64,000 bases of DNA from a phage: the sequence record PX068456.1. One strand, written 5' to 3'. The position numbers and the translations under genes were made by a program. Positions 12,937-29,611 of this stretch are shown one piece after another (position 1 is the stretch's first letter; every line of letters starts with the position of its first letter). The notes beneath the pieces were generated by a model that worked only from the letters and a program-made list of their open reading frames with translations, ran no database searches and was not told the DNA's origin.

Positions 12937-14064
12937 TTAAAACACACTTGCCAAAGTTGCACCATTGGTGATAGTTGGTTCCAGAACAATACGGAAAGAA
13001 TCTTCTGGATCATCACTAAACACAACGATTTTACCGCCTGTGATAAGGTCTGCTTTCATTTTTGTCGCATTCAACGGAATTCGAGCATCGCCTTCATCAT
13101 CAAAAACCACGTAAGAGCTATTAGCAAGGGCTTCTTTAGAATCTGCATCACTTGGAGATGACAAGTACACGTCTAGTGTGCACGAGCCACCTAAAAAGAT
13201 TGCAGGTGTAAAGTTATGCCAACTAGATACCCAGCTAACTTTCTGAAGTTTCCCATTAATAACAACACTGCTGATATCCCATTTATTACCACCACCTAAA
13301 GAAACGCCCATCATAGAGATGCATTCTTTAAAGGATAAATCAGGGTAGAAATTAAGTTCTTCTACTATACCTTGGATCACATCAAAGGATAACTCTAAAC
13401 TTACATCCCAAAGCCTTTGAAAATTATCAAAGTGTGCTTTGTTATCCAGGTTTTTATCTAAATAGTCAATCATAGTTTCTAGTGAGATTTTATCATAATT
13501 AAAATTATAAAACACACGACTAGGACGATTTAGAAAGAATTCAGAGATAAAGCCACTGTTTTTAGTTAGAATAAACAGTTTATTACCACTGCCAGTACCA
13601 TCTAACAAAGTGAGAAGTGCTTCTTGATCTTGTTTCTTCTCATATACTTTATCAAACTCGTCAAAAATAATCACTGCTTTGTCGGTGATCTTGCTAATAA
13701 GTTCAATGAAATTAGCATCGCTGTAGGCTTGAGTAACCATAATAGTTGGAATACCTTCTTCTACAAGGTCACGACTAATGAGTTTGGCTAACATAGTTTT
13801 ACCACTACCCTTAGTTCCTGTCAGAAGCAAGCCTGTATTTTTACCTTGTGCACTCCGGCGATGGAATGTACGGATAACGTGATTTGCTCGTTTTTCTGTT
13901 TCACCATACAGAACATCCGGTACACCTGTCAGATTACCACGGCTTAAAAAATAATTGCCAAGGGGATCACGACTAACAGTATAGAATCCAGGTGGAAGAT
14001 AGTTAGATTCCACGCCCATGTCTTTATTTACACTTACAATATCACCATAAATCGTGTATTTCAT
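12937..14064 (-). CDS. AAA-family ATPase (paralogue of 28044..29204)
   Basis: Walker A GTKGSGKT, Walker B IIFDEFDK; N-terminal 200 aa align with 28044 ORF. Confidence 0.65.
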   Translation of the reverse strand: MKYTIYGDIVSVNKDMGVESNYLPPGFYTVSRDPLGNYFLSRGNLTGVPDVLYGETEKRANHVIRTFHRRSAQGKNTGLLLTGTKGSGKTMLAKLISRDLVEEGIPTIMVTQAYSDANFIELISKITDKAVIIFDEFDKVYEKKQDQEALLTLLDGTGSGNKLFILTKNSGFISEFFLNRPSRVFYNFNYDKISLETMIDYLDKNLDNKAHFDNFQRLWDVSLELSFDVIQGIVEELNFYPDLSFKECISMMGVSLGGGNKWDISSVVINGKLQKVSWVSSWHNFTPAIFLGGSCTLDVYLSSPSDADSKEALANSSYVVFDDEGDARIPLNATKMKADLITGGKIVVFSDDPEDSFRIVLEPTITNGATLASVF

Positions 14065-14075
14065 TTTAACCCCTT

Positions 14076-14513
14076 TTATTTTTGTTGAGATGAACGAATT
14101 AAATCAGCAGCAAATTCAATCAGATACACTTTTGGTGCAATAATGATTTTTAGCCAATCAAAATTCGAAAAGAAAATAACAAATCCTAAAAAGAAAAAGA
14201 AAGCACAGACAACAAGACCAACAATAGGTAAAGCAGATACTTCACCATAACGATCTCGTGACCACAGGCATTCTTTATCTTTAATTGCTTTTACGATGTT
14301 CCGCACAGCAATAAAAGTAATAAACATAAAGCAAATACTAAAAAGTTGCCATAAACCTGCGGATACTGCTTTCCACACTAATAATTGATGGATTACTTCT
14401 GGAATTTGTTGTTTTCCAAACTCCACAACATCACTCATTGTTTGAATAGTGACGTTAACCATGTTCAGAAGTACATCCGTTGCTTTATCTGCGATTGCGT
14501 TTGTTTTACTCAT
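14076..14513 (-). CDS. putative membrane protein (145 aa)
   Basis: ORF track; long hydrophobic segments; GAGGAA RBS. Confidence 0.5.
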   Translation of the reverse strand: MSKTNAIADKATDVLLNMVNVTIQTMSDVVEFGKQQIPEVIHQLLVWKAVSAGLWQLFSICFMFITFIAVRNIVKAIKDKECLWSRDRYGEVSALPIVGLVVCAFFFFLGFVIFFSNFDWLKIIIAPKVYLIEFAADLIRSSQQK

Positions 14514-14527
14514 TCTTTATTCCTCAC

Positions 14528-14701
14528 TTACCTTTTAAGGAAACCAATCATAATGAAGAACCACATCCAGGCAGGAGAGATAATAAAGCCAAAGAAACCG
14601 CAAATAACCGCTTTCTTAATCTCTTCCAGACAACCCACCAGGAAAAGAACGAGTGAGACTACAATCCAGATAGCCATAAATACTGTAACAAAGAAACTCA
14701 T
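14528..14701 (-). CDS. small hydrophobic membrane protein (57 aa)
   Basis: hand-translated; GGGAGAAAGG RBS; below ORF-track cutoff. Confidence 0.35.
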   Translation of the reverse strand: MSFFVTVFMAIWIVVSLVLFLVGCLEEIKKAVICGFFGFIISPAWMWFFIMIGFLKR

Positions 14702-14721
14702 ACCTTTCTCCCGTCTGTATT

Positions 14722-14973
14722 TTAAAATTCAACCACCACTTTATCGAGGTGCTCTGCTTCAACTTGATCTAATGTTAACACCTCAACTAAACCCTTGTCA
14801 ATACCTAATTTAATAACATCAACATATTGTCCAAACAGATCCTGGATAGATATCTTGTGTTCGACAACAACAACCACTTCATTCCCTTTTGTGAATTCTC
14901 TCCATACACGTCCACATTTGAAAATAAAGTCTGCTTCATCTGCTGTTATCATTTTAGGTTTGATACTTAACAT
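14722..14973 (-). CDS. hypothetical protein (83 aa)
   Basis: ORF track; overlaps stop of upstream gene. Confidence 0.45.
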   Translation of the reverse strand: MLSIKPKMITADEADFIFKCGRVWREFTKGNEVVVVVEHKISIQDLFGQYVDVIKLGIDKGLVEVLTLDQVEAEHLDKVVVEF

Positions 14974-15524
14974 TATAAAACTCCGTATTCCGGCTCAAAA
15001 TCATATTTTTCACAAATCATGTCCCAGCGTTCGTTGCCGAAGCTGCGACCACAAATTGCATCGTAAGCATAATGCTCTGCTAACCATTTTACAACAGTGT
15101 CTACATCATTATCAAGTGGTAATCTGAATTCTTTGCCATATCGCATACGAAGAACAAATTCATCCCCTTCTTCAAACAAGTGCATATGGCTTTTTGCATA
15201 AGAAGCCAGGTTGAAAAAAGATACCTCTTCCCAGCATTCTTTTTCCACTGCAATTCCGTGATCAACAACTAAAGCACCGATGACGCGATACATAATAGGG
15301 CTAAACAGTGCGCTTGAGCTAGGTTGATCTTCAACTATAGACCAACCTGTTCCCTGCCAAATTTCATTTTTGAACCATTGTTCCATGTTATTTCCTTTTT
15401 CGTCTACAAGGGATCGGTTACGCATTTCAAACCATTCCCCTTCGCAAAAGTATTTATGTTTAACACGTTTGCCTTTTAACATTGCTTCTTTGGCTTCTAC
15501 CCAAGTCAGATCGGTGTTTTGCAT
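14973..15524 (-). CDS. hypothetical protein (183 aa)
   Basis: ORF track frame; start at internal ATG 15524 with GAGGAG RBS. Confidence 0.5.
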   Translation of the reverse strand: MQNTDLTWVEAKEAMLKGKRVKHKYFCEGEWFEMRNRSLVDEKGNNMEQWFKNEIWQGTGWSIVEDQPSSSALFSPIMYRVIGALVVDHGIAVEKECWEEVSFFNLASYAKSHMHLFEEGDEFVLRMRYGKEFRLPLDNDVDTVVKWLAEHYAYDAICGRSFGNERWDMICEKYDFEPEYGVL

Positions 15525-15554
15525 TCGTTTATCTCCTCTCATTTGTGTATGCAT

Positions 15555-15584
15555 TAAGATTAGCACAATAAAACAGTATGTCAA
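15555..15584 (-). promoter_or_regulatory. leftward promoter (TTGACA-16-TAATCT) in divergent switch region
   Basis: hexamers on minus strand; plus-strand cluster begins at 15641. Confidence 0.4.
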
Positions 15585-15640
15585 TACTTGATCTGAAATT
15601 AGTTTCTGGTACTCTGTGTGTATCGTAACAAAAGAGGTAG

Positions 15641-15934
15641 ATGATGAACATTACTTTAGCAACTAAGAATATTTCTGAAACAATTAACGGTTTTGGTGTG
15701 ATTGTAGCCTTGCACGGTAACAATGAGAAATGGTTGGCTTCTTTTGAAGAGGATCGTCAGCACAACATCATTTTAGACGCTCCTATAAAAGTTATGCATA
15801 TTGTTGGTGAAAGCAAAGTGCTCACTTCCTCCCGTTCAAGGGAACAAATTACAAATGAATTAGTAAAACTGCTTGACAATGTTCTTAACATGTTTGATGA
15901 TGCTCCCATCAACACAAAACGTGTCTTAATGTGA
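15641..15934 (+). CDS. hypothetical protein (97 aa)
   Basis: ORF track; RBS AAAGAGGTAG. Confidence 0.5.
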   Translation: MMNITLATKNISETINGFGVIVALHGNNEKWLASFEEDRQHNIILDAPIKVMHIVGESKVLTSSRSREQITNELVKLLDNVLNMFDDAPINTKRVLM

Positions 15935-15946
15935 GAGGAGAACCAA

Positions 15947-16234
15947 ATGTATTATTCACAAGATGAAGTAGCAAACATTAAACTGGCAGTGGGCGATCTT
16001 ATTGTGTCACCTAACTACTATTGGGATAACACAGATTTGGTTGAAGTAGTAACCTATGTTGGAGTTGAAGGTATTGTGCTCTACACACTAGGTGGAGGTG
16101 TTGTTGGGGAAATGGAACGTTATACGACAACGAAGAAACTGGTAAGCTCTTATCACATGTTTTTACACCAAGGTTCGGAAGAGTATACAGCTTTCTTGTT
16201 GAAATTAGATGCAGATCGGGAGAAGGCACGATGA
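15947..16234 (+). CDS. hypothetical protein (95 aa)
   Basis: ORF track; RBS GAGAGGAGAACC. Confidence 0.5.
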   Translation: MYYSQDEVANIKLAVGDLIVSPNYYWDNTDLVEVVTYVGVEGIVLYTLGGGVVGEMERYTTTKKLVSSYHMFLHQGSEEYTAFLLKLDADREKAR

Positions 16235-16584
16235 AAATTGTACACGATGAAATTCAATTTGAAGAGAGTGATCTTCTTGATCTGGATGTGACACTAAGTA
16301 AACTGATCTACAATGCACTTTCTGCGTATCGTGCAAAAGTGATAGCCACAAACAATGTTAAAATTCCTAGTGGGTTACTTCGTCGGATGTACCCACACGC
16401 TAAAGGTGACTATCTACCTTATATGGAAGAACGAGCAGCAGAACACTGGTTAGAAATTCTTGAAAAAATGGAGTCTTCTTTTAAGGACTCAACTCCACCA
16501 GAAGAAGTTAATGAAAAGCAGCGGCAAGATCGTTTAGAAGGTCGCATTTTGTTTGCTAAGTATTTCCATAATCTGTGGATGTAA
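16231..16584 (+). CDS. hypothetical protein (117 aa)
   Basis: ORF track; ATGA overlap coupling. Confidence 0.5.
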   Translation: MKIVHDEIQFEESDLLDLDVTLSKLIYNALSAYRAKVIATNNVKIPSGLLRRMYPHAKGDYLPYMEERAAEHWLEILEKMESSFKDSTPPEEVNEKQRQDRLEGRILFAKYFHNLWM

Positions 16585-16596
16585 TAAGGAGTAAAG

Positions 16597-16752
16597 ATGG
16601 TTATCTACAAAAATAAGTTCACTGGTTGTCTGCGTAAATTTATTGACAAAAAAGGGTATGTTTCTGTTGACAATGGTGTTACGTGGGTGCAAAATGGCAC
16701 TTCAGAACAACTGATCAAGGCTCTACCTTACTACGAGGAGTTTACAAAATGA
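16597..16752 (+). CDS. hypothetical small protein (51 aa)
   Basis: hand-translated; TAAGGAGTAAAG RBS. Confidence 0.35.
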   Translation: MVIYKNKFTGCLRKFIDKKGYVSVDNGVTWVQNGTSEQLIKALPYYEEFTK

Positions 16753-16949
16753 CAGAATGGGTAAAAGTAGAAGATCCATACGATATCCCACTAGGTGAGT
16801 ATGTGGTGGTAATGGAAGATGGTGGAAAAGGGTATTGTGAAGTGCATAAAAGTATGTCTGGTAAGATTATTGTGGTGAACCATCATTTTCACTTTGATTA
16901 CCCTCCTATTGTGGCATATATGCCTTTACCTAAATACGAAGGGGATTAA
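16749..16949 (+). CDS. hypothetical small protein (66 aa)
   Basis: ORF track frame; start at ATG 16749 after GAGGAG. Confidence 0.45.
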   Translation: MTEWVKVEDPYDIPLGEYVVVMEDGGKGYCEVHKSMSGKIIVVNHHFHFDYPPIVAYMPLPKYEGD

Positions 16950-17096
16950 ATGTTATTCTTTAGACTTAATATTGCTTTCTGTTTGTTTGCAAACATTGCA
17001 TTCTGGGTATTAGGTAGTGTAAAATTAGGCTACTTCTTTACTGTACTGCAAGCTATTTGTTTAGCTGGTCAAATAATCACTAAGGGGCGAGTATGA
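16950..17096 (+). CDS. small hydrophobic peptide (48 aa)
   Basis: hand-translated; fills gap; overlaps next start by ATGA. Confidence 0.3.
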   Translation: MLFFRLNIAFCLFANIAFWVLGSVKLGYFFTVLQAICLAGQIITKGRV

Positions 17097-17521
17097 CGCA
17101 ACAAATCCAAGACAAATTTAATGAACTCTATCCAGCAAGCGAAAGCGGCACTCATAACGTGCGTAAATCGCTCTATAACGTCTTTAAAGCAGGATGGGAG
17201 GCTTGCCTTCAGGCTCAAGAAGAACCAGCGTCAGGGACGCGTAACGGCTTTTATATCCCGATTGTTGAAAGTGAGGAAGGATGGGGTAGCAAACATGATG
17301 GTTATATGGTAGGATTCACCATAGAAGATCTTGAAGAACGCCGTAAAGTCTTTGAGGCAGCTAATACAGAAAAGTATGGCTACTATTATGAACGACCTGT
17401 TCGTTACATTCCTGTTGTCCTTAGTCCTAAAGCTGTTGAAACAATGTCTGCAACAGAAAAAGAAAGGACTCGCCATTGTGTATGGTTTGATGATATTGAC
17501 GATTTTCGATTTGGAGAATAA
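17093..17521 (+). CDS. hypothetical protein (142 aa)
   Basis: ORF track; RBS AAGGGGCGAG. Confidence 0.5.
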   Translation: MTQQIQDKFNELYPASESGTHNVRKSLYNVFKAGWEACLQAQEEPASGTRNGFYIPIVESEEGWGSKHDGYMVGFTIEDLEERRKVFEAANTEKYGYYYERPVRYIPVVLSPKAVETMSATEKERTRHCVWFDDIDDFRFGE

Positions 17522-17524
17522 ATT

Positions 17525-17797
17525 ATGAAAAATAAACACCCTTACTATAAATTATTGCATGTACTGCGCCGATTGCGCAATAAACAGATTGAAGATTTCC
17601 GTCACTTCAAGCGTGATCGTGTGAATCGTCAATGGATGGATCATCGTTTCTTCTCTCTAACTGTACGTAAGTTCCGTGAAGAGATTAAGAAGACAGACCA
17701 GGTAATTGCAGGTGCTAAACGTGCAATCTCTATGTCAAAAATCACAGGTGTAAATCATATGTACGACTTCAAAACAGACTCTGTTGTACCTATGTAA
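17525..17797 (+). CDS. hypothetical basic protein (90 aa)
   Basis: ORF track; RBS GGAGAATAAATT. Confidence 0.5.
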   Translation: MKNKHPYYKLLHVLRRLRNKQIEDFRHFKRDRVNRQWMDHRFFSLTVRKFREEIKKTDQVIAGAKRAISMSKITGVNHMYDFKTDSVVPM

Positions 17798-17961
17798 AAG
17801 TATTTTGTAAAGTTTTGTGGAGAGTATTGACTTTTTCAGAAAAACATGCTACCCTAAACCTGAAAGGTGACGAGCGAAGCGAGTTAGTATTCTCTATAGA
17901 TATTGTTCCTGTCACTCATGGAGGGGCAGGAACAGAGTATATTACTGTATAGGAGAATACT

Positions 17962-18228
17962 ATGGATGTTACTACACTAAGGTTTATACTTCTCTTCTTA
18001 CTTATAGTTATAGGATTAATTGTTATACCCTATCTATATGTCTACATGTTATCTCGTAAGTATGGTTATGATCGTATACCATTTTACTATTTAATACCTG
18101 TCTTAATTATCTACCTATTTCTCTTTTGTAGATATTGCCCTGAATTAGTTCCTGAACACTGGAAGTTAGAACCTGTTGAAGTTTACCATTGCGAATGGAA
18201 GACAGAATACAGATCTAACAGTAATTAG
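17962..18228 (+). CDS. small membrane protein (88 aa)
   Basis: ORF track; two hydrophobic helices; RBS AGGAGAATACT. Confidence 0.5.
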   Translation: MDVTTLRFILLFLLIVIGLIVIPYLYVYMLSRKYGYDRIPFYYLIPVLIIYLFLFCRYCPELVPEHWKLEPVEVYHCEWKTEYRSNSN

Positions 18229-18288
18229 TTATTGACTCTATCTACTAAATAATCTAGACTCTATGTAAAATTTACTAAGGAGACTACT

Positions 18289-18453
18289 ATGCAAAACATT
18301 TCTATCACTAAAACAAAAAGATCTGTACCTAAACTTACTCACTCTACATATCCTGTTATCATCCGTAAAGGAAAAGAATGGATTAAAGATGATCATGGTG
18401 GTTATGTAGAAGTGTCAAAGCTGAAAGAAGCAGAAGTTAACTTTGTACGCTAA
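18289..18453 (+). CDS. hypothetical small protein (54 aa)
   Basis: hand-translated; AAGGAGACTACT RBS. Confidence 0.4.
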   Translation: MQNISITKTKRSVPKLTHSTYPVIIRKGKEWIKDDHGGYVEVSKLKEAEVNFVR

Positions 18454-18463
18454 GGAGTAGACT

Positions 18464-18745
18464 ATGACTGAAGAATTTAAGCAATGGTTTGATAAAAACT
18501 TTCTACCCCATCTGTGGCCTAATGAAGAAGAACGTCAAGAGATGATGATCTACACTTGGCTTGCCTGGCGGGATGGTATCCGTAGCAAAGAAGCCCAGGA
18601 AGAGGAACCTATTGCTTACATCTTTAAACATCCAGCAGGTAAGTTGTTTTGGGCTTTAACAGATGAAAGTAATAAAGATCACCACGATGTTATTCCTGTG
18701 TATACCAAGAGCAATGTAAAGGATCAATCAGATGACAAGGTATAG
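18464..18745 (+). CDS. hypothetical protein (93 aa)
   Basis: ORF track; RBS TAAGGAGTAGACT. Confidence 0.5.
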   Translation: MTEEFKQWFDKNFLPHLWPNEEERQEMMIYTWLAWRDGIRSKEAQEEEPIAYIFKHPAGKLFWALTDESNKDHHDVIPVYTKSNVKDQSDDKV

Positions 18746-19214
18746 CATATGGGGTAGAATGGGCGAAGACCATGATTACTATTGCTTGAAAAGTAATGTT
18801 GAACAGGCAGATGTTGATAAAATTATAAAGCACTACCTGAAAACATGGCGTGAAGTGGAGTTTAGAGAGTTCGCTATCCTCCATAGTCAAGAAGGAGAAA
18901 AGGAGATAGACATGAGTACACTAACTAAAGCAGTACAAACGCATAAGGAGTATGAGGAAGCAGTTAAAGATGAAGTAAACCCTACTTCACTGACCTTCGA
19001 AAACCTTACCCCTTTGTTTTGGTCATATGATGGTAATGAAATTTTTACACATGATACACCAGAGGCTGTTAAAAATTGGGAAGGCTGTTGTAATTCCTAT
19101 GAGGTGTTATATGTTGTAGAAGAAGATGATACGTACATTATGTTCCGCATAGATAACGGTTGTGGTGATCAGTGGGATATTGTTCTTTCTAAACATTTGC
19201 AATTGGGTGGTTAA
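18732..19214 (+). CDS. hypothetical protein (160 aa)
   Basis: ORF track. Confidence 0.45.
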   Translation: MTRYSIWGRMGEDHDYYCLKSNVEQADVDKIIKHYLKTWREVEFREFAILHSQEGEKEIDMSTLTKAVQTHKEYEEAVKDEVNPTSLTFENLTPLFWSYDGNEIFTHDTPEAVKNWEGCCNSYEVLYVVEEDDTYIMFRIDNGCGDQWDIVLSKHLQLGG

Positions 19215-19215
19215 A

Positions 19216-19578
19216 ATGCTAAAGTACCTGATGATCACTTGGTTATGTTTACTTTCATTTGCTGTGCATGCAACAGAAGGTTTTAAACTTGGTGCTGACG
19301 GTACTAAATTCTTTACATATTGGGGTGGGAAAGCCTTATACCAAGAAGAAAAGAATAGCATAGAATGTACGGTTAGTAAGAAGATTAAATCAGTAGATCA
19401 ATATGGGGATGCCTATACTGGTGTAGGTTTTAACTGTGGAAAAGATTTATTTCTATTTGTTAAGAAGTATTTAGATGTTAACCTTGTATTGCTTATTGTT
19501 GTAGATCCTGCTAAGTTTGAAGAGCGTAAAGCATATCGTGCAGATATGTTCCTAGAATATGATGATAAGGAGAAATAA
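19216..19578 (+). CDS. putative secreted protein with signal peptide (120 aa)
   Basis: ORF track frame; start at ATG 19216; MLKYLMITWLCLLSFAVHA leader. Confidence 0.45.
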   Translation: MLKYLMITWLCLLSFAVHATEGFKLGADGTKFFTYWGGKALYQEEKNSIECTVSKKIKSVDQYGDAYTGVGFNCGKDLFLFVKKYLDVNLVLLIVVDPAKFEERKAYRADMFLEYDDKEK

Positions 19579-19929
19579 ATGCTTGATGTAACTATTAATG
19601 GTGTTAAATATATTCCTTATGTAGAGAAAAGCAATCCTGATGCCCTGGATGTTATGTTTGAGGATTCAGATCTTGGTACTGTCACTGTACGGGAATATTT
19701 CCGACAACTACTCTCTACGTTATGGAGAGAAGAAGAGTGTTTTAATGGTAAACGTCCATTTGGTAACTCATGCTGGCAATTTGATATGATCCGTGCCTTA
19801 ATTGAGGCAGGGTATATTGAAGGTACAGTTGTGTACGATGAAGATGGATATCCAGAAGAAACTGATTACGACAGTAAAGAAGCTAATAAATTTATACAGG
19901 GCTTGATTGCACAGATGTGTTTGGGTTAA
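19579..19929 (+). CDS. hypothetical protein (116 aa)
   Basis: ORF track. Confidence 0.5.
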   Translation: MLDVTINGVKYIPYVEKSNPDALDVMFEDSDLGTVTVREYFRQLLSTLWREEECFNGKRPFGNSCWQFDMIRALIEAGYIEGTVVYDEDGYPEETDYDSKEANKFIQGLIAQMCLG

Positions 19930-19930
19930 T

Positions 19931-20317
19931 ATGAAAGTATTAAATTTCTACCATTTAGGTAAAGTAATACCTGAAGGTGCAGTGTACATTGGCAGAGCTA
20001 TGCCTCATATGGGGCTAAAAGCCTCAAAGTTTGCAAATCCTTTTAAGCTAAAGGATGATGAACCACGAGGATCAACTATACAAAGATATAAAGAGTGGTT
20101 GTGGGAACAAATTCGTTGTGGTAAAATCACTCTTGAGGATTTGTTAGAATTAGAAGGGAAAGACTTAGTTTGCTTCTGCTCACCTCAACCTTGTCATGGT
20201 GATGTGTTGGTAGCAGCGGTTGCTTGGGCTAGAACAGAGTGGGATAAAAGGCATCCTACTTACACAGATGATTATTGGATTTGGGAGGATATTTATGAAG
20301 ACTACACAAGAAATTAA
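19931..20317 (+). CDS. DUF4326-like protein (128 aa)
   Basis: motifs YIGR...ANPF and CFCSP.PCHGDVL recalled as DUF4326 signature; not verified. Confidence 0.4.
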   Translation: MKVLNFYHLGKVIPEGAVYIGRAMPHMGLKASKFANPFKLKDDEPRGSTIQRYKEWLWEQIRCGKITLEDLLELEGKDLVCFCSPQPCHGDVLVAAVAWARTEWDKRHPTYTDDYWIWEDIYEDYTRN

Positions 20318-20660
20318 CGTATTTGATCTGTCAGGTTTAGATATGGAAAAAGCAACCCTGTATCATCACGATAAAGATAACATTACGTACATCTACATCG
20401 GAGCAGACAAATATAACATTCCTGAAAACTCCCTGGCAGTAATGAAGGAAGGGGATATGCCTTTGCAAGAGAAGATGATTGGTTTTTCCTTTCGTCAAGA
20501 TGTTAAGATGGACGGTGTTATTGCTGTCTTCCAGGTGGACGAGTTTTATATGGTTACTTTTGTCACACCAAATTTCACCAATATCAATGGGGAAGAGGCA
20601 GCAAACGATGTTATTGTTCTAACGTTGGGTAATGCCTTAAAAGATTTAGAAAACGTTTAA
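20295..20660 (+). CDS. hypothetical protein (121 aa)
   Basis: ORF track frame; start at ATG 20295 with GGGAGGA RBS. Confidence 0.45.
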   Translation: MKTTQEINVFDLSGLDMEKATLYHHDKDNITYIYIGADKYNIPENSLAVMKEGDMPLQEKMIGFSFRQDVKMDGVIAVFQVDEFYMVTFVTPNFTNINGEEAANDVIVLTLGNALKDLENV

Positions 20661-20681
20661 CAAACCAATAAGGAAAATATA

Positions 20682-21197: not shown

Positions 21198-21205
21198 GGG
21201 GAAAT

Positions 21206-21682
21206 ATGTCTAAACGTTTTGGTCGTAATCAAAAAAGAAAGTTAAGTGCTCAACTAGCAGCTTTGCAAAAAGAGGTTAACACTTTACAAAAAAGTGTTTG
21301 TGAACTCAAGGAACAAAACCAGCTTGAAAAAGAATGTATTCAGCTTACACAGGAAGTTATTGGGGAGTATTTCCCTTCATTAGTGCCTAAGAAGGTGGCT
21401 CTTAGGGAAAATCTACCTTTTGCCTTATCCTTGATGCAAACAAGGGATAGATTCCAAACTGAAACTGAGGATTTGATGTTTGCAATGCATCAATTACGTG
21501 GTTTAGAATATACAGCACAAGTGGATAAACTTCGTAACATGCTATATGTGCGGGTAGAAACACCTAAAGGTGAGACAGTAGCGTTTAATTATAATTTCCA
21601 ACAACTACCTGATCATATTATTGAACAAATTTTAAAACGAGATTTTGTTCCTATGCTTGTTAAACAAATTAAGAGAGGTTGA
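21206..21682 (+). CDS. hypothetical coiled-coil protein (158 aa)
   Basis: ORF track. Confidence 0.5.
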   Translation: MSKRFGRNQKRKLSAQLAALQKEVNTLQKSVCELKEQNQLEKECIQLTQEVIGEYFPSLVPKKVALRENLPFALSLMQTRDRFQTETEDLMFAMHQLRGLEYTAQVDKLRNMLYVRVETPKGETVAFNYNFQQLPDHIIEQILKRDFVPMLVKQIKRG

Positions 21683-21683
21683 A

Positions 21684-23420
21684 ATGGCTAAGAAAGAGTT
21701 GAGTTTTACTCCAACAGAAGAGCAAACAGCTATTAAGGAGGCTTTTCCAGATCATCGGTTTTTAACTATCCAAGCTAAATCTGGATCAGGAAAAACGTCA
21801 ACACTTTATTTGCTGGCTAACAGTACAGAAGATCGCATTCTTTACTTAGCTTTCAATAAAAGCATGGCAGAAGAAGCACGGCGTAAGATGCCACCAAATG
21901 TAGAATGCCGTACATTGCATTCCATTTGCTATCAATTCCTGGATCATCGTTTACGTGCAAAACTGTCACGACCAGAAGGGCAGTATGTTAACGTTGCAGG
22001 TACAGGTAGTGAGATAGCAAAGAAATTTAAGATTAATAATCTTATTGATAAACGAGGGAAAACACTTTTAACTCGTGCTATGATTGGTTTAATGATCAAG
22101 CAAACCGTAGGTAAGTTTGAATTTTCGGATGATCCTTTTATCAGCCGTAAACATTTTCCTGGTGTACATCTTGCAGATATTAAAAGAAAAGGTATTAACG
22201 AACACAAACTAATTACAGAAGTAGTTAAGTATGCAAAACAATTGTGGCGAGAGCGCATTGATCCTAACACAGATACTTTGATGACGCATGACACCTATGT
22301 AAAATTGTTTGAATTGTCTGGTGCTGATCTTGGTTATGACATTATTTTTGGGGATGAATTCCAGGATGTTAACCCTGCATTCTTGTCTATTCTGCGGAAT
22401 GCTAAATCTGCAAAACAAGTAGTGGTGGTGGGAGATGAATATCAGAGCATCTACCAGTTCCGTGGAAGCCAAAATATGATGAAGGAAACCTCTACATATG
22501 GGGCAGAGCTTCCATTAACTGCTTGCTTCCGTTTTGGCCCCAAAGTGGCAAACATTGCGAATATGATTTTAAGTGATAAAGAACCTTTGCGTCATCCTTT
22601 GGTTGGTAAAGGCTTTGATACTGTAGTAGGTAGCTACAAATCAGATGTTGTAGACTATACAAAACCTTACACTATCATCTTTCGCAAGAATTTAACCTTG
22701 CTTATGGAGGCAATGGATCGTATTGCAGATGGGGAAGAAATTATTATTAACGTAGATACCAGGGATTTTATCTCTATGGTAGATAGTGTTAATGCTCTTC
22801 GGAGAGGAGATATTGAGAAAGTAAAACATGAAACTGTATTACCTTACGCAGACTGGAATGAATTTGTTGAGTGTGCAGAGGCTGATCCAGATGCTAAACG
22901 CTTGTTAAACATCGTAGTTTCTGGCAAGGCAAACACTATAGCACATACACTTAGAACGCATAGAAACTCTCCTACAGCAAAAGTCACACTGACTACAGCA
23001 CATAAGTCTAAAGGTTTGGAGTGGGATCAGGTTATTGTTGCTAATGATTTTCCTTCCAACTATGATAAAAAGACTGGTGAGTGGGTAGGACTAGAAGAGG
23101 CAGAGCGAAACCTATTGTATGTAGCGCATACCCGTTGTGTTAAATGCTTACAATGGAACACAACCGTACAGGAGATTATAGATATCAACCGTGTTGCAAC
23201 AGAGAAAGTACCCACAAGCACTACTTTACCGATCAATGGTATTAAACTTGGTGTATTTGGTGCTGGCACATCTCGAAAAACTGTAGAAAAATTTGTTGCA
23301 GATTCTTTTGATGGTAACTATAATCATGCACAAGCATATGAGAGTTGGCTAGAGGAAGGTGAAGGTGATTTCTTAGGTGAAATAAATCTTTTACCAGACA
23401 TAAATAAACTGGTAAACTAA
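21684..23420 (+). CDS. UvrD/Rep-like superfamily 1 DNA helicase
   Basis: Walker A AKSGSGKTST, motif II IFGDEFQD, motif III VVVGDEYQSIYQFRG, motif VI TAHKSKGLEWDQV. Confidence 0.7.
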   Translation: MAKKELSFTPTEEQTAIKEAFPDHRFLTIQAKSGSGKTSTLYLLANSTEDRILYLAFNKSMAEEARRKMPPNVECRTLHSICYQFLDHRLRAKLSRPEGQYVNVAGTGSEIAKKFKINNLIDKRGKTLLTRAMIGLMIKQTVGKFEFSDDPFISRKHFPGVHLADIKRKGINEHKLITEVVKYAKQLWRERIDPNTDTLMTHDTYVKLFELSGADLGYDIIFGDEFQDVNPAFLSILRNAKSAKQVVVVGDEYQSIYQFRGSQNMMKETSTYGAELPLTACFRFGPKVANIANMILSDKEPLRHPLVGKGFDTVVGSYKSDVVDYTKPYTIIFRKNLTLLMEAMDRIADGEEIIINVDTRDFISMVDSVNALRRGDIEKVKHETVLPYADWNEFVECAEADPDAKRLLNIVVSGKANTIAHTLRTHRNSPTAKVTLTTAHKSKGLEWDQVIVANDFPSNYDKKTGEWVGLEEAERNLLYVAHTRCVKCLQWNTTVQEIIDINRVATEKVPTSTTLPINGIKLGVFGAGTSRKTVEKFVADSFDGNYNHAQAYESWLEEGEGDFLGEINLLPDINKLVN

Positions 23421-23431
23421 GGGGGGTTAAA

Positions 23432-23683
23432 GTGGCAGGGTATCATTTGAAGGAGATTAGCAAAGAGGAATATGGTTCTGTTGCTAAGATTCAAGAAGAG
23501 CTTTATGAACTTCAGGATGCTATTGCTCAAGATTGCAAGCTGATGCAACTTATTGAGTTATCAGATATTGTAGGCGCTGTTGAAGGTGTTCTTGAACAGC
23601 ATTTTCCTGATATGACGCTTCAAGATTTGATCACTATGTCAAACATTACTAAACGTGCATTCCGCAGCGGAGGTCGATCATGA
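23432..23683 (+). CDS. putative MazG/HisE-like all-alpha NTP pyrophosphohydrolase (83 aa), GTG start
   Basis: EE..EL...A.....L.ELSD pattern resembles MazG-type NTP-PPase. Confidence 0.35.
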   Translation: MAGYHLKEISKEEYGSVAKIQEELYELQDAIAQDCKLMQLIELSDIVGAVEGVLEQHFPDMTLQDLITMSNITKRAFRSGGRS

Positions 23684-24252
23684 ATGTTGCAGTAATAGCT
23701 CAAGCTATTGATTACTATGGTCGGTTTGCACAAATGTTGGAAGTTCCCTATCTCGTGGATGCTGATATACTGGCGTACACACTACCAGAAAATAAAGAGG
23801 ATCGCCCATTAGGGCATCCTAACGGTAAATACTATGTAGCTAGTGCAGAACAATCTTTCCTGCAAATGGAGAAGGATGGTTTTGAATTTGCAGCAGGTAA
23901 TCCGTATATGGCACTAACACCATGTTACCGTACAGAAGAAAATTTAGATGATACCCATTTTAATATTTTCTTGAAATTGGAGTTGATTGAGTTCTACCCT
24001 GATGCTACAATTGAAGAGTATGCTAACGCTATGCGCTGTTTCTTCTCTACTTATTATGGAGTTAAAACATATTTAGTACCCACTAATATTGGGGTTGACG
24101 TAGAGGATGAATATGGTTTAGAATTAGGTTCATTCGGTATGAGGGAGTCTCCAAAAGGTCATCCTTATATCTATGCAACAGGTATTGCAGAGCCTAGGGC
24201 TTCACTGGCAATAAACCGTGTTGTAAATAACATTCAAAGCATTAGCAAATAA
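23680..24252 (+). CDS. class-II aminoacyl-tRNA-synthetase-like catalytic core fragment (190 aa)
   Basis: motif-2-like TPCYRTEE....HF..LELIEF and motif-3-like GIAEPRASLAI; pattern recognition only. Confidence 0.35.
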   Translation: MNVAVIAQAIDYYGRFAQMLEVPYLVDADILAYTLPENKEDRPLGHPNGKYYVASAEQSFLQMEKDGFEFAAGNPYMALTPCYRTEENLDDTHFNIFLKLELIEFYPDATIEEYANAMRCFFSTYYGVKTYLVPTNIGVDVEDEYGLELGSFGMRESPKGHPYIYATGIAEPRASLAINRVVNNIQSISK

Positions 24253-24264
24253 GAGGAGAATAGA

Positions 24265-24699
24265 ATGTCTATTGTGACACAAATGAAAGCAGATCGTATC
24301 TTAGCACGTACAACCGATAAGGGTGCTTTTGCTTTGTTAACTAATATTATTGGTGAGTTTGACCTTGCTCGTACTCAAAAGGCAAATCTAAACAAATCAG
24401 AAGACGATATTATGATTAACATTGTTAAGATTGGTATTGCACACGCTAAAGAGGAACTAGACTCGCTTAAGAAAGTTAATGCTTCCATTAGTAAGTGTGA
24501 GCGAGCTATGCGTGATATCACCACTCTGGAAAAATATTTACCAGAAATGCTATCTGAAGATGATCTTCGCGCTATTGCTGAAGAATTTGCCTTGACAGGC
24601 AAGAAAATGCCAGATATGATGAAACACCTTAAAGCAGAGTATCCGAATCAATATGATGGAAAACTTGCTTCTACCATTGCAAAAGAAATTTTAAACTAA
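24265..24699 (+). CDS. GatB/YqeY-domain protein (144 aa)
   Basis: C-terminal YLPEMLSEDDLRAIAEEF...DGKLASTIAKEIL matches YqeY-domain pattern. Confidence 0.45.
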   Translation: MSIVTQMKADRILARTTDKGAFALLTNIIGEFDLARTQKANLNKSEDDIMINIVKIGIAHAKEELDSLKKVNASISKCERAMRDITTLEKYLPEMLSEDDLRAIAEEFALTGKKMPDMMKHLKAEYPNQYDGKLASTIAKEILN

Positions 24700-24716
24700 T
24701 TTAGAAGGAGAACATA

Positions 24717-25667
24717 ATGATTGCATTTTACGCTAATAAACTGGAAGTTAAAAAAGCAGCAGAAGAGATGGGTATCCTGCATATTCTTAACGAAGCAATT
24801 CACAAGAGTTTTGGTTACACAACTGAAGCAGAAATCAATGATCTGATTCACAGTGTTAATGATTTGTTCTTCTACCCTAACTTTCTACAGCAGTTAGATG
24901 GTTGTGGATTTGAATATATGGAACTTCATCCTGAATATACATTTATGGAAGTAACACCTGAAGGTTTTCTGGAAATTATTCGTACTGAATATCTTGCTAA
25001 TGAGGATAAAGAAAAAGATATGGCTGAAAAAGTACAACTGACTGTGCATAATACGTGTTTCCTGGATACTGATGCCACGGAAGAAGATATTAGTTATCTG
25101 CTTTCAGTTTGTAATCCTCGTTGTCCACAACCACATTGGAAAAATGCAGATCATTATCTAATGTATTCAACTGAAGAAAACATTACTTTCTTCGATGAAA
25201 ACAGTGGTATTAATGGTGCACATAAGAATTCTCCATATCGGAAAGATCGGTTTGTAGTTGATGTAAAAACATTTACTAAACTGTTTGAGGAGTATTATTC
25301 AAAAGATGAAAGTAAAACTGAATCTTCACCAAAACCACGTTTTCGCCGACCGCGTAAACCTGTGCCTACTCGTTCTGTAAGTTATGTTCGTATCATTTAC
25401 ACTACACAGCAGGTATATACTCTTAAGAACGTAAGTGTTCTTACTGTACAAGAAGATGCAATTAATATTGTGCGCAATAATGTTATTACAGAGGGTATTG
25501 AGGAAAAGATTATGTCTGTTATCGATCCTAAACTTGTTATGGCAATCATTATTAATGAACCAAAAGGTGTAACAACATTGTTCCGAAATATTCATGGTAC
25601 TTGGGAAACTCAAGTTGACGGTTTGACTTCTGACGGTTGTACACGTATTACCAAAAACCTTGACTAA
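24717..25667 (+). CDS. hypothetical protein (316 aa)
   Basis: ORF track; RBS GAAGGAG. Confidence 0.5.
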   Translation: MIAFYANKLEVKKAAEEMGILHILNEAIHKSFGYTTEAEINDLIHSVNDLFFYPNFLQQLDGCGFEYMELHPEYTFMEVTPEGFLEIIRTEYLANEDKEKDMAEKVQLTVHNTCFLDTDATEEDISYLLSVCNPRCPQPHWKNADHYLMYSTEENITFFDENSGINGAHKNSPYRKDRFVVDVKTFTKLFEEYYSKDESKTESSPKPRFRRPRKPVPTRSVSYVRIIYTTQQVYTLKNVSVLTVQEDAINIVRNNVITEGIEEKIMSVIDPKLVMAIIINEPKGVTTLFRNIHGTWETQVDGLTSDGCTRITKNLD

Positions 25668-25714
25668 GATCAAGGACAATCTTACGAAAAAGATTTAAAA
25701 TAAAGATCCACCCT

Positions 25715-25740
25715 AAAGCCAGCTTAATGCTGGCTTTTAT
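25715..25740 (+). terminator. intrinsic terminator AAAGCCAGCttaatGCTGGCTTTTAT
   Basis: GC stem plus T-run. Confidence 0.5.
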
Positions 25741-25756
25741 TTTCCACGGAGGATTA

Positions 25757-27556
25757 ATGACCCAAAAACTATATGAGGATGTAATCGGATTCCTCGAACA
25801 AACATCCGAAGAATTTACTCGTGAAAATGCAAACAAACCTGCAATGATTGTTAATACTCACCGAGACTTACTAGCAGGTATTCTGAGCAAGCACATGGCA
25901 ATGACCCATATTTTACCGGAAGATTTAGCAGAATGGCATAAAAGCGGGTATGGTCACATTCACGATTTAGATTATTTACTCTCACCTTTAACTAATTGTT
26001 GCCTGGTAAATTACCAAGATATGCTTGAGAACGGTTTCCGTATTGGTAATGCACATATTGAAAAACCAAAATCTATCGGTGTAGCAACTACTGTTCTAAC
26101 TCAAATTATTCAAGCAGTAGCTTCTAGCCAATATGGTGGACAAACTTGTGCACATATTGATACTGGGCTTAGTCAATACGTTAAAGCAAGTTTTAATAAA
26201 ATATATGCCGATGTTGGCGATTATGATATTGCTATGCGTATGGTAGATAAACAGGTCTATGATGCAATGCAAACTTTAATCTACCAGGTGAACACCCTAA
26301 TGAGTGTAAATGGTCAGTCACCTTTTATAACAATTAGTTTAGGTTTGGATACCTCTGCTTTTGGTAGAATGATCACTAAAAACTACCTAATGGTGCACAA
26401 ACAAGGTTTAGGAAAAGATAGGGTAACTCCTGTGTTCCCTAAAGTTATCTTCTTCTTGGAAGATGGTGTTAACATGAAAGCTGGTGATCCAAACTACGAT
26501 TTGAAGCAACTGGCAATGGAGTGTTGTGCTGAACGCATTTATCCTGATTTTATCTCTGTACCTTTAAACAAAGAAGTTACAGGATCTTCAGATGGTCGCG
26601 TCACAAGCATGGGTTGTAGAAGTTTCTTGTCATACTATGCAACAGAGCAAGGTGAAAAATATGATGGTCGTTTCAATTTAGGCGTAGTTTCTTTAAACTT
26701 ACCTATCATTGCAGCAGAGTCCCGTGAAAAGGGCATCTTATTTACTGAACTGTTGGAACAACATATGGAGATGGCGTATAAGGCACATATGCTACGTGTT
26801 AACCGTATTAGACATACCAAAGCATCTCAAAACCCTACATTGTTTATGGAAGGGGCTTTAGCTCGATTAGAAGCTAATGAAGAGATTGGTAAACTATTTG
26901 AAGGTGGTTATGCCTCTATTAGTATCGGTTATGTAGGTTTAGCAGAAGCTATGGAGATTTTATACCCAAATAACACCAATCCAAAAGCAATGGGTAAAAA
27001 CATCCTTCAATATATGAAGGATATCTGTTGCACATTTAAAGAACGTTCTGGTTTAGCTTTTAGTTTGTATGGAACACCAGCAGAATCCTTGTGCTATAAA
27101 TTTGCCAAAGCGTTAAATGATCGCTACCCTGGTTCTATTGATCGTGACTACTTGACAAACTCTTTCCATCAACCTGTATGGATGCACACTACCCCGTTCC
27201 AAAAATGGGATTATGAGGAAGGTTTTGCACAAATTAGTAATGGTGGGAACATAGGTTATGTAGAAACACCGAACCTTAAAAATAACTTGCAAGCACTGGA
27301 AACTCTTGTAGATTATGCCTACAACAAAATTCCTTATTTTGGCGTGAACCAACCTGTAGATCAGTGTTTCAAATGTGGTTTTCATGGTGAATTTAAGGCA
27401 ACAGCTAAAGGCTTCGAGTGTCCAAGTTGTGGAAATCATGAAGAAGAATCCATATCTGTGATCAGAAGAGTGTCAGGATACCTTTCTGCCCCTAACTCTC
27501 GCCCTTATAATAAAGGTAAAATGCAAGAGGTACTAGAAAGGGAGAAACACTTTTGA
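25757..27556 (+). CDS. nrdD: anaerobic ribonucleoside-triphosphate reductase
   Basis: size and N-terminal region; C-terminal Zn site CFKCG...CPSCG and glycyl-radical-type motif RRVSGYL. Confidence 0.8.
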   Translation: MTQKLYEDVIGFLEQTSEEFTRENANKPAMIVNTHRDLLAGILSKHMAMTHILPEDLAEWHKSGYGHIHDLDYLLSPLTNCCLVNYQDMLENGFRIGNAHIEKPKSIGVATTVLTQIIQAVASSQYGGQTCAHIDTGLSQYVKASFNKIYADVGDYDIAMRMVDKQVYDAMQTLIYQVNTLMSVNGQSPFITISLGLDTSAFGRMITKNYLMVHKQGLGKDRVTPVFPKVIFFLEDGVNMKAGDPNYDLKQLAMECCAERIYPDFISVPLNKEVTGSSDGRVTSMGCRSFLSYYATEQGEKYDGRFNLGVVSLNLPIIAAESREKGILFTELLEQHMEMAYKAHMLRVNRIRHTKASQNPTLFMEGALARLEANEEIGKLFEGGYASISIGYVGLAEAMEILYPNNTNPKAMGKNILQYMKDICCTFKERSGLAFSLYGTPAESLCYKFAKALNDRYPGSIDRDYLTNSFHQPVWMHTTPFQKWDYEEGFAQISNGGNIGYVETPNLKNNLQALETLVDYAYNKIPYFGVNQPVDQCFKCGFHGEFKATAKGFECPSCGNHEEESISVIRRVSGYLSAPNSRPYNKGKMQEVLEREKHF

Positions 27557-28023
27557 ATTACGCCGGATATGAACCTGTTGACATGCTCAACGGTGACGGT
27601 GTAAGATGCTCTTTGTGGGTGAGCGGTTGTAGCCACGGTTGCCGTGGCTGCTTTAACCAGAAAGCCTGGTCGTATAACTACGGACAAGAGTTCACTACTG
27701 AAACATTAGATTTTATCTTGGAAGATTTATCTCGACCTTTCATTAAAGGATTAACAGTTTTAGGTGGTGAACCTCTTGACAAAGAGAACATTGACACTGT
27801 AGAGTATGTTCTTGAGAAGGTAAGAGATTGTTTTGGAAACAAAAAAGATATTGTCTTATATACAGGATATCTTTTTGAAGAAATTCCAGAGAAAATTAAA
27901 AAACTGGTTGACATAGTGATAGATGGTAAGTATGATATGAATCAACCAACAACGAAACGTTATAGAGGTTCAGATAATCAACGAATGTGGGTTAAGAAAG
28001 ACAACATTTGGGAATCTGACTAA
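27553..28023 (+). CDS. nrdG: anaerobic ribonucleotide reductase activating protein (radical SAM), TTG start
   Basis: CSHGCRGCFN radical-SAM cysteine motif; overlaps nrdD stop. Confidence 0.75.
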   Translation: MNYAGYEPVDMLNGDGVRCSLWVSGCSHGCRGCFNQKAWSYNYGQEFTTETLDFILEDLSRPFIKGLTVLGGEPLDKENIDTVEYVLEKVRDCFGNKKDIVLYTGYLFEEIPEKIKKLVDIVIDGKYDMNQPTTKRYRGSDNQRMWVKKDNIWESD

Positions 28024-28043
28024 ATTAAATAGAGGAGAAAACT

Positions 28044-29204
28044 ATGTTTACAGTATTCGGCAATCAAATCTTCCTGCGTCAGAAGTCTGGTACAGATATT
28101 GAAGAAATTCCAGCAGGAACTTTTGGTGTAGGTGTTACTCAAAGTGGCGAGTTCTTCCTGTATCCTAAAAATGATATGGAAGTCCCTTCAGTAACATACG
28201 GTGATACTGATGATAAATCAGAACGTATTATCAAGACGTTCCTTAGCCGCAAAGGTAAAAACACAGGTGTTCTCCTTGAGGGTACGAAAGGTAGCGGTAA
28301 AACTTTGCAAGCTAAAATGTTGTCTTCTGCTCTTCGTGAAATGGGTATTCCTACTATTTCTATCGGTAGTGCTTTTAATGGTGAAGGCTTTATCAATTTT
28401 ATGTCTAAAATCACACAACCTGTGATGATTATGATTGATGAATTTGATAAACTGTATGCTGAAAAAGATGCACAAGATGGTTTGCTTACCCTGCTGGATG
28501 GTGTTGGTGGTTATGACAAGCTGTTTGTATTGACTAAAAATGATGGTTATGTATCAGAATTTTTGCGTAATCGTCCTAGCCGTATTTTCTACAGTTTTAG
28601 CTATAAGAAACTACCTAAAGCTACTATGGATGATTATCTGGCTAAAAATCTGGAGAACAAAGCCTTCTTACCAGATTTTGAAACGCTTTATAATCTCTCC
28701 GTGGATTTGAACTTTGATATTGTTCAGTCATTAGTAGAAGAACTTAACCGTTATCCTAATGACAAATTCTCTGATGCACTTGCATTAATGGGTATCAGTA
28801 TTACTGAACACCGCTATGCTGCAAAAGAAGTTAAACTTCTGAAAGTTAACGGTGTAGATCGTACAGCAGATGTTTCGTCAGACACCGATATTGACGGTAT
28901 GACAGCACAAGGTTTGTTTAGCGGTAATCGTTATGTTGTAGCTGTAGATCATAAGTCAGGAGAAGAGCATCTTCCTGAAATGGAAGGGATTGTTACCGTA
29001 GAAGATAAAGATGAAGAAGGTGACTACTACTGGGGTGTAGACCGTATCTTGCTAACGTATGATGAAAAACACATTCGTACAATGGGTGGTGACGGTTATC
29101 ACTTTATGTTCACCGATGATAAAGGTAACAACATTGAAGTTGTTATTAAAAACAAAGAACGTAAAAACTACACAGAGTATGTGTTTGGTGGTCGTTCTTA
29201 CTAA
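28044..29204 (+). CDS. AAA-family ATPase (paralogue of 12937..14064)
   Basis: Walker A GTKGSGKT, Walker B IMIDEFDK; shared N-terminal region with minus-strand paralogue. Confidence 0.65.
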   Translation: MFTVFGNQIFLRQKSGTDIEEIPAGTFGVGVTQSGEFFLYPKNDMEVPSVTYGDTDDKSERIIKTFLSRKGKNTGVLLEGTKGSGKTLQAKMLSSALREMGIPTISIGSAFNGEGFINFMSKITQPVMIMIDEFDKLYAEKDAQDGLLTLLDGVGGYDKLFVLTKNDGYVSEFLRNRPSRIFYSFSYKKLPKATMDDYLAKNLENKAFLPDFETLYNLSVDLNFDIVQSLVEELNRYPNDKFSDALALMGISITEHRYAAKEVKLLKVNGVDRTADVSSDTDIDGMTAQGLFSGNRYVVAVDHKSGEEHLPEMEGIVTVEDKDEEGDYYWGVDRILLTYDEKHIRTMGGDGYHFMFTDDKGNNIEVVIKNKERKNYTEYVFGGRSY

Positions 29205-29209
29205 GTGAT

Positions 29210-29238
29210 AAAAGGAGGCGAAAGCCTCCTTTATTTAT
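29210..29238 (+). terminator. intrinsic terminator AAAAGGAGGCgaaaGCCTCCTTTATTTAT
   Basis: GC stem plus T-run. Confidence 0.55.
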
Positions 29239-29609: not shown

Positions 29610-29611
29610 AA

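Follow-up and report, generated by a model that had tools for sequence, protein, structure and literature searches.

Two diverged AAA-ATPase paralogues on opposite strands of a phi92-like phage genome

The phage sequence record PX068456.1, of which a stretch of 64,000 nucleotides (the window) was analysed here, contains two open reading frames (ORFs) for AAA-type ATPases, raising the question of whether the two proteins are related throughout their length or only at the P-loop, and of what two such motors might do for one phage. ORF A (12937..14064, minus strand) encodes 375 amino acids and ORF B (28044..29204, plus strand) encodes 386 amino acids; a Shine-Dalgarno-like sequence lies upstream of each ATG, AAGGGG for A and GAGGAG for B. 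An earlier note on this DNA had described two AAA-ATPase paralogues on opposite strands at these positions, and the ORF calls together with BLASTP bear this out. On the sequence evidence we are highly confident that A and B are real genes encoding true full-length paralogues, each with an intact AAA motor.

The two proteins, their motor and their family

BLASTP aligned residues 3-256 of A with residues 2-253 of B at 119 identities over 254 positions (47%), with 70% positives and an expect value (E) of 1e-81. The alignment spans the N-terminal beta domain, the whole AAA alpha/beta core and the lid. A similarity confined to the P-loop, which the earlier note had regarded as fatal to its proposal, is not what the pairwise alignment found: 254 amino acids could be aligned and, because the N domain, the entire core and the lid all take part, the similarity is not limited to the P-loop. 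The homologous N-terminal stretch had been put at about 200 amino acids; its homology stands, while its length has to be extended to about 254 amino acids, or two-thirds of the protein. The Walker A motif is GTKGSGKT in both proteins and the Walker B motif is FDEFDK in A and IDEFDK in B, in agreement with the identical and near-identical motifs reported before. By domain, identity between A and B is 28% for the N domain, 56% for the core, 45% for the lid and 18% for the C domain. At the DNA level identity is 66% over 322 nucleotides and the longest exact shared word is 16 nucleotides, values that rule out A and B as recombining inverted DNA repeats. The window holds no third copy of the family.

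BLASTP detected no similarity between A and B beyond residue 256 or so. The earlier note had taken the two proteins to have different C-terminal halves, a description that needs correction on two counts: it is the last third (about 120-135 amino acids) that diverges, and this part is still homologous by profile comparison. When C-terminal alignments were compared by hhalign, the A and B clades matched at E 1.7e-5 with a probability of 79%, and each matched more strongly a third, intermediate, metagenomic clade, referred to as clade I (P0024-29), at 5.5e-10 for A and 8.3e-11 for B. The C-terminal regions of A, B and I are collinear and have the common landmarks MMGI, VNG, D(E/D)EGD, GG(K/H)xVF and (R/E)(I/V)V(L/I)E, and the C-terminal thirds of A and B have a similar predicted beta-rich secondary structure. 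A swap of C-terminal domains is ruled out by this homology and collinearity. Among orthologues the C domain changes 2-4 times faster than the core (for example, B and P0033 are 92% identical in the core and 45% in the C domain). Judged from these comparisons, the C domains of A and B are fast-evolving, diverged homologues.

AlphaFold2 models of A and B, built on 114-sequence alignments, had mean predicted local distance difference test (pLDDT) scores of 90.9 and 89.8, respectively. Both models have the same layout: a five-strand N-terminal beta domain (about residues 1-45), a long helix, the AAA alpha/beta core, a four-helix lid, a beta-rich C domain and a low-confidence tail (Table 1). In the model of A, DSSP places the N-domain strands at residues 3-6, 9-12, 18-20, 27-32 and 38-43, and the conserved columns of this domain are G7, P24, L40, Y53 and G54. 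Both proteins are acidic (isoelectric point 4.9), the AAA core being their only basic part; the N, lid and C domains are acidic, the C domain of A has a net charge of -6, and in 94% of relatives the C domain carries a net negative charge. Neither protein has a transmembrane segment (maximum 19-residue hydropathy of about 1.0). No Pfam family and no solved structure covers either the N-terminal or the C-terminal beta domain, and a profile search of PDB sequences with the C domain gave nothing significant, the best match being the cNMP domain of the PKA regulatory subunit at E 0.3. phmmer matches of the influenza A NS1 effector domain to residues 201-291 of A (13192-13464; E 8e-4 to 5e-2), which cover the lid and run into the C domain, were taken as probable chance.

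The C-terminal tails (12940-12960 in A, 29181-29201 in B) are modelled with low confidence, as expected of flexible segments, and pLDDT is low in the tail of A. In 79 of the 114 relatives the protein ends in an aromatic residue, most often after A, L or V. Such mobile tails with a conserved aromatic terminus recall the docking tails of other AAA rings and may be docking elements themselves.

The clade to which the motor belongs was examined by profile, motif and structure. Against a gathering threshold of 21.2 bits, the Pfam family PF00004 scored 38.9 bits with A and 29.4 bits with B, and it was the best Pfam family for all 114 relatives. When the family profile was compared with PDB sequences, the top ranks were taken exclusively by classic AAA proteins (p97/Cdc48 D2 at E 3.6e-13, VAT, NVL, AFG2 and Rix7), in alignments running from Walker A to RPGR. 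The classic AAA clade, which includes unfoldases and remodellers, is characterized by a second region of homology with two arginines, an LLxxxDG motif, and a GAD-like lid motif without a sensor-2 arginine. Invariant across the 114 sequences (A numbering) are G83, G86, G88, K89, D135, E136, N169, R180 and R183, and likewise K139, Q147, D155-G156 of LLTLLDG, Y186, and F227, D228 and N238 of the lid. The second region of homology reads NRP(G/S)R in the family and NRPSR in both A (R180/R183) and B (R177/R180), and it aligns with the RPGR of p97 D2. F227, a phenylalanine in every one of the 114 sequences, was assigned to the sensor-2 position by eye against the GAD motif of FtsH; because it sits at this proposed position, the family appears to lack a sensor-2 arginine. 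In 96 of 114 sequences the pore-loop-1 column (Y114 in A) holds an aromatic residue; after one residue of any kind comes G (81) or D (26). By its motifs, the motor is a classic-clade AAA module and is catalytically intact.

Foldseek searches with the model of B ranked Bcs1 first (E 2.4e-8, template modelling score of about 0.41-0.43), ahead of Rpt subunits, FtsHi and NSF. These alignments cover the AAA module alone (about 200-255 residues or columns) at about 16-20% identity. The closest solved fold to the predicted model is Bcs1, weakly so.

An 18-kb region of the window is 97-99% identical to more than 50 coliphage genomes of the genus Justusliebigvirus (phi92-like, Stephanstirmvirinae). An exact-sequence look-up found A to be identical to phi92 gp221, and B falls in the 90%-identity cluster of phi92 gp190; both phi92 proteins are named 'ATPase'. 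The GenBank labels seen were 'ATPase (x2)', 'putative ATPase or Zn metalloprotease (x2)' and 'FtsH-like protease'. In PHROG, both proteins match phrog_2376 over nearly its whole length of 363 positions, A at E 6.6e-108 (residues 1-367 on profile positions 1-357) and B at E 2.2e-104 (residues 1-376 on profile positions 2-359), a family annotated there as 'ATPase' in the category 'other'. The feature is therefore already catalogued, both genes having been deposited as 'ATPase', and it is unsurprising for a 148-kb phage. As a side observation, three GenBank records named 'Campylobacter phage C3/A145/A110a' (MG065656, MG065645 and MG065689; about 146.4 kb) encode proteins 98-100% identical to those of these E. 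coli phages; the records look like Justusliebigvirus, and their host label may be wrong.

The family extends well beyond this genus. Among 1.84 billion representatives, the family profile found 3,331 clusters (50% identity) at E <= 1e-30, nearly all of 350-400 amino acids and matching the whole profile. Cultured carriers include Phapecoctavirus, Herelleviridae of Bacillus, Enterococcus and Lactobacillus, large siphoviruses of Lactococcus and Staphylococcus, Salmonella phage 7-11, jumbo phages of Erwinia, Yersinia and Agrobacterium, and crAss-like phages, and full-length structural relatives were seen in Erwinia, Salmonella, Agrobacterium, Proteus, Lactobacillus and crAss-like phages. In the searchable literature we found no discussion of the paralogy of A and B or of the A/B/I clade structure, and nothing on the function or essentiality of the two genes, including in CRISPRi-ART, HIDEN-SEQ and transposon screens; phrog_2376 is a phage-specific family for which the literature search found no characterized member.

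A neighbour-joining tree of 60 sequences gave bootstrap values of 98 for the A clade, 100 for B, 100 for I and 70 for B+I, and it set A, B, I and P0030 apart from all other phage relatives with a value of 84. Two copies are present in all Justusliebigvirus records examined and in the Klebsiella phages phi1_175008 and KP2025, whereas the sister genus Phapecoctavirus has a single A-type copy, and phages at a greater distance also have just one. Because A, B, I and P0030 stand apart from the other phage relatives, the tree points to a lineage-specific duplication within this Stephanstirmvirinae-like phage lineage, after which Justusliebigvirus and some Klebsiella phages would have retained both copies. 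Recent horizontal gain of one copy is unsupported, since A, B, I and P0030 form one clade and the GC content of the genes (0.374 for A, 0.377 for B) matches that of the window (0.378).

Comparison with phage JohannJBalmer revealed 15 synonymous and 1 non-synonymous codon differences in A, and 23 synonymous and 2 non-synonymous differences in B, with the same pattern in the C domains. This synonymous excess indicates that both genes are under purifying selection, and the ratios rule out a decaying duplicate.

The paralogy itself changes little, for dozens of phi92-like genomes already carry 'ATPase' labels and duplicated AAA motors are common. What lends it weight is that A and B belong to one of the larger uncharacterized phage protein families (about 3,300 clusters at 50% identity), with members reaching therapeutic-candidate myoviruses, Herelleviridae, jumbo phages and crAss-like phages. 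The phi92/BASEL phages (Bas61 and Bas62) offer a convenient genetic system for this family, because they grow on E. coli K-12 and have two diverged copies as compared to one in the sister genus.

What the two motors might do

We propose tentatively, at a little under an even chance, that A and B are ring-forming protein remodellers with different clients. Following the precedent of classic AAA proteins, each paralogue would assemble into a nucleotide-dependent ring. ATP would be hydrolysed at inter-subunit sites involving K89, E136 and N169, with R180/R183 supplied in trans, and hydrolysis would move the aromatic residue of pore loop 1 (Y114 in A, F111 in B) against a protein client selected by the diverged N- and C-terminal domains. 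Each paralogue would in this way remodel or take apart a target of its own, probably as a homo-oligomer separate from the other, because the genes lie in different operons and one copy is enough in the sister genus. A conserved motor with diverged N and C domains fits one engine that serves two client specificities. With pore loop 2 missing and pore loop 1 short, disassembly of complexes or local remodelling in the style of Bcs1, NSF or Trip13 is favoured over processive unfolding. The substrate-specific remodelling suggested in the earlier note retains its footing in the paralogy and in the conserved motor with its diverged periphery; the wording 'different C-terminal halves' would suggest a domain swap and is overstated, and the adjacency to nrdD-nrdG has no bearing on function.

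Several observations weigh against ring-forming remodellers. Pore loop 1 is a turn of about six residues without the canonical aromatic-hydrophobic-glycine sequence (Y-S-D in A, F-N-G in B), and pore loop 2, which would lie between Walker B and alpha3, is deleted, the family profile having a gap of about 12 residues where p97 D2 has the loop. A short helix between beta2 and alpha2 is a hallmark of the classic clade, and DSSP assigns no such helix in either AlphaFold2 model, strand 107-110 being predicted to lead directly to helix 117-125. Across the approximately 11 diverse contexts surveyed there was no constant partner gene pointing to a client. A literature search that included Justusliebigvirus, phi92 and Stephanstirmvirinae found no paper or experiment on any family member.

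Paralogous classic AAA proteins often form hetero-hexamers, and A and B might accordingly be subunits of one heteromeric ring, as with Pex1/Pex6 or the proteasomal Rpt proteins, the duplication having made an asymmetric motor. Retention of all catalytic and arginine-finger residues in both proteins, and the presence of both copies in every Justusliebigvirus record examined, would be in keeping with this arrangement. We nevertheless consider it unlikely, given that the genes are 14 kb apart on opposite strands and in different operons, that a single copy is found in Phapecoctavirus and thousands of other phages, and that the cores are only 56% identical with both the N and C domains strongly diverged.

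A role in DNA replication, in which A and B would act as AAA+ factors (helicase loader, clamp-loader-like or initiator-like) on DNA or on replisome proteins, is improbable in our estimation. It draws on secondary PHROG matches to a clamp loader and a DnaC-like loader (E 1e-8 to 1e-6), on a weak NCBIfam match to Hda, and on the names 'DnaC' or 'DNA replication protein' that some sources give to relatives; in addition, a crAss-like phage and contig L012 have the gene in a setting of primase, helicase and recombination genes, and B lies within a helicase/nrd region. The scores, however, are far below the cutoffs (29.8 bits against 194.8 for Hda, 19.9 against 200 for IstB, and about 13 against 280-303 for RFC), and the profile ranks against PDB sequences, the RPxR and LLTLLDG motifs and the apparent absence of a sensor-2 arginine are those of the classic clade. 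The acidic N, lid and C domains, with a C domain that is negative in nearly all relatives, would be poorly suited to DNA binding, and the neighbourhoods of the family are not consistently replicative.

The clients might also be host immune assemblies, a special case of the remodelling proposed above in which A and B would pry such assemblies apart as Trip13 acts on HORMA-CD-NTase complexes. We see a slim chance that this is so; the fast-evolving C domain would then track host targets, with two paralogues for two targets. Trip13 scores no better than other classic AAA matches and aligns in the AAA core alone, and no PADLOC family matched above P-loop noise. Phages that carry the family infect widely differing hosts, Gram-positive ones among them, and include crAss-like phages; this wide spread suggests a host-independent role. 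Both C domains, moreover, are under purifying rather than diversifying selection within the genus. A broader version, that PHROG 2376 as a whole consists of phage-specific ring remodellers which disable host immunity by dismantling oligomeric defence complexes or NAD/ADP-ribose-based effectors, with the C domain and aromatic tail docking the target, we regard as a long shot. If true, it would make the A/B duplication a matter of two anti-defence specificities, and it would explain the NADAR and macrodomain genes near both copies as well as the NAMPT and NUDIX genes near relatives.

Virtually no credence can be given to FtsH-like ATP-dependent zinc metalloproteases, as implied by the GenBank labels and by the FtsH/FtsHi AAA modules among the structural matches, an annotation effectively refuted by the lack of a Peptidase_M41 Pfam match, of HExxH and of a transmembrane helix in both proteins, which terminate after a beta-rich domain of about 120-135 amino acids. 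The analysis corrects the misleading labels 'FtsH-like protease', 'Zn metalloprotease' and 'DnaC'.

Genomic neighbourhood

The surroundings of the two genes are as the earlier note had described them, with B after nrdD-nrdG, and A beside small membrane-type ORFs and the endonuclease/NADAR pair. In its leftward operon, A is followed by two more genes and preceded by small ORFs that include one for a 145-amino-acid protein weakly matching a PHROG membrane-protein family. The pairing of A with the endonuclease is retained in phAPEC8. The endonuclease, which has CapR and T5orf172 domains, varies in size: 329 amino acids in the window, 390 in JohannJBalmer and 394 in phAPEC8. A 183-nucleotide indel likely accounts for the gap, possibly through one CapR zinc-ribbon repeat gained or lost.

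Table 1. Positions in the window of the parts of A and B and of neighbouring features
Feature	Position	Strand	Residues or size	Remarks
NADAR	11321-11872			follows the endonuclease
CapR/T5orf172 'endonuclease'	11873-12862	minus	329 aa	after A in operon
A C-terminal acidic beta-rich domain	12940..13302	minus	aa 255-375	flexible tail, ends ...SVF
A helical lid	13303..13488	minus	aa 193-254	helices 195-205, 209-221, 227-239, 245-252
A linker helix and AAA alpha/beta core	13489..13899	minus	aa 56-192
A sensor-1 to arginine pair	13513-13566	minus	N169 to R180/R183	verified by translation
A Walker B	13648-13665	minus	D135-E136	FDEFDK
A pore-loop-1 equivalent	13717-13734	minus	contains Y114	TQAYSD
A Walker A	13795-13818	minus	G83-T90	GTKGSGKT; coordinates verified by translation
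A N-terminal five-strand beta domain	13900..14064	minus	aa 1-55	ends in near-invariant Y53-G54
Hairpin	25715-25737		9-bp stem, 5 G-C pairs	overlaps annotated nrdD start codon at 25727
nrdD	25727-27556			upstream of B
nrdG	27553-28023			directly upstream of B
B N-terminal beta domain	28044..28205	plus	aa 1-54	DSSP of AlphaFold2 model
B linker helix and AAA alpha/beta core	28206..28610	plus	aa 55-189
B Walker A	28281-28304	plus	G80-T87	GTKGSGKT
B pore-loop-1 equivalent	28365-28382	plus	contains F111	GSAFNG
B Walker B	28434-28451	plus	D132-E133	IDEFDK
B sensor-1 to arginine pair	28533-28586	plus	N166 to R177/R180	sequence
B helical lid	28611..28796	plus	aa 190-251
B C-terminal acidic beta-rich domain	28797..29201	plus	aa 252-386	tail ends ...RSY
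Terminator-like hairpin	29211..29232	plus	9-bp stem, 5 G-C pairs	7 nt past B stop; T-rich tail; pattern match
aa, amino acids; bp, base pairs; nt, nucleotides.

On the other side, genes for a HAD protein, a ComF-like PRTase_3 protein and a macrodomain protein come after B (29594-31118). In the Klebsiella phage KP2025 (locus L007), the equivalent block runs from a helicase, through a protein of about 320 amino acids, to the B orthologue, HAD, PRTase and macrodomain genes without nrdDG. Because this block does without nrdDG, the adjacency of B to nrdDG is incidental, and a functional link between the two is rejected. The nrdD-nrdG pair itself (25727-28023), lying between a gene for a 316-amino-acid protein and B in the window and missing from the matching position in KP2025, behaves as a mobile or lost two-gene module. 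The two strong hairpins of Table 1 flank the nrdD-nrdG-B unit: the downstream one probably ends this transcription unit, and the upstream one may be the terminator of the preceding gene or a regulatory element.

Two further genes of this region are recorded here. The 316-amino-acid protein (24717-25667, plus strand) matches PHROG 15930, 'ribonucleotide reductase', at E 1.8e-184 and has no Pfam match at E <= 0.001; the label looks unsupported. The UvrD/Rep helicase ORF (21645-23420, plus strand) encodes at most 591 amino acids, and its orthologue in JohannJBalmer contains a 347-amino-acid intein in a precursor of 924 amino acids. The phage of the window is without this helicase intein, and the intein and the CapR indel account for an alignment length difference of about 1.2 kb.

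By plain count, five of the approximately 11 surveyed contexts of the family have an NAD-salvage gene (NAMPT or NUDIX) no more than about 6 kb away. Salmonella phage 7-11 and three metagenomic contigs have NAMPT within this distance, sometimes together with NUDIX/NMNAT or PRPP synthetase, and a fourth contig has NUDIX nearby; the loci with NAD/ADP-ribose-type neighbours are L003, L008, L010, L011 and L014. The recurrence of such genes may reflect a shared counter-defence or auxiliary gene region. Two unrelated metagenomic phage contigs (L008 and L013) have a Band_7/SPFH gene beside the family ATPase or close to it, and L014 has a gene for an SspB-like protein (ClpX adaptor) 3 kb downstream.

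Comparison with known systems

A and B are members of the group formed by phi92 gp221, phi92 gp190 and phrog_2376, from which they do not differ. With classic AAA proteins (p97/Cdc48 D2, NSF, FtsH, Rpt and spastin) they have in common the Walker A and B motifs, the sensor-1 asparagine, the RPxR pair, LLxxxDG and the apparent lack of a sensor-2 arginine, and the lid motif of the family, FD(M/V)(L/I)..LVEE, resembles the GAD(L/I)..L..EA of the classic clade. The phage family departs from these proteins in the deletion of pore loop 2, in a pore loop 1 cut to [P/A]-aromatic-x-[G/D], and in N and C beta domains of its own.

Bcs1 is a mitochondrial AAA protein that forms a heptameric ring and moves the folded Rieske protein. 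Compared with Bcs1, the phage proteins are without a transmembrane anchor and without a match to the Bcs1_N Pfam family, and they have an extra C-terminal domain; the lead of Bcs1 in score over other classic AAA proteins is small. The bacterial Trip13/Cap6 of CBASS (E. coli MS115-1, PDB 6p8v) is 13% identical and aligns in the AAA core alone; its N domain appears unrelated to that of A and B as far as the comparisons reach. PADLOC models gave sub-threshold P-loop noise, the best being mad8 at E 8.5e-4, with Trip13/Cap6 not among the matches, and the curated NCBIfam models gave sub-threshold P-loop matches and no curated name for A or B. Pex1/Pex6 and Yta10/Yta12 likewise represent a duplicated classic AAA motor with diverged accessory domains, but these pairs form obligate hetero-rings, whereas the genes for A and B are unlinked and a single copy suffices in the sister genus.

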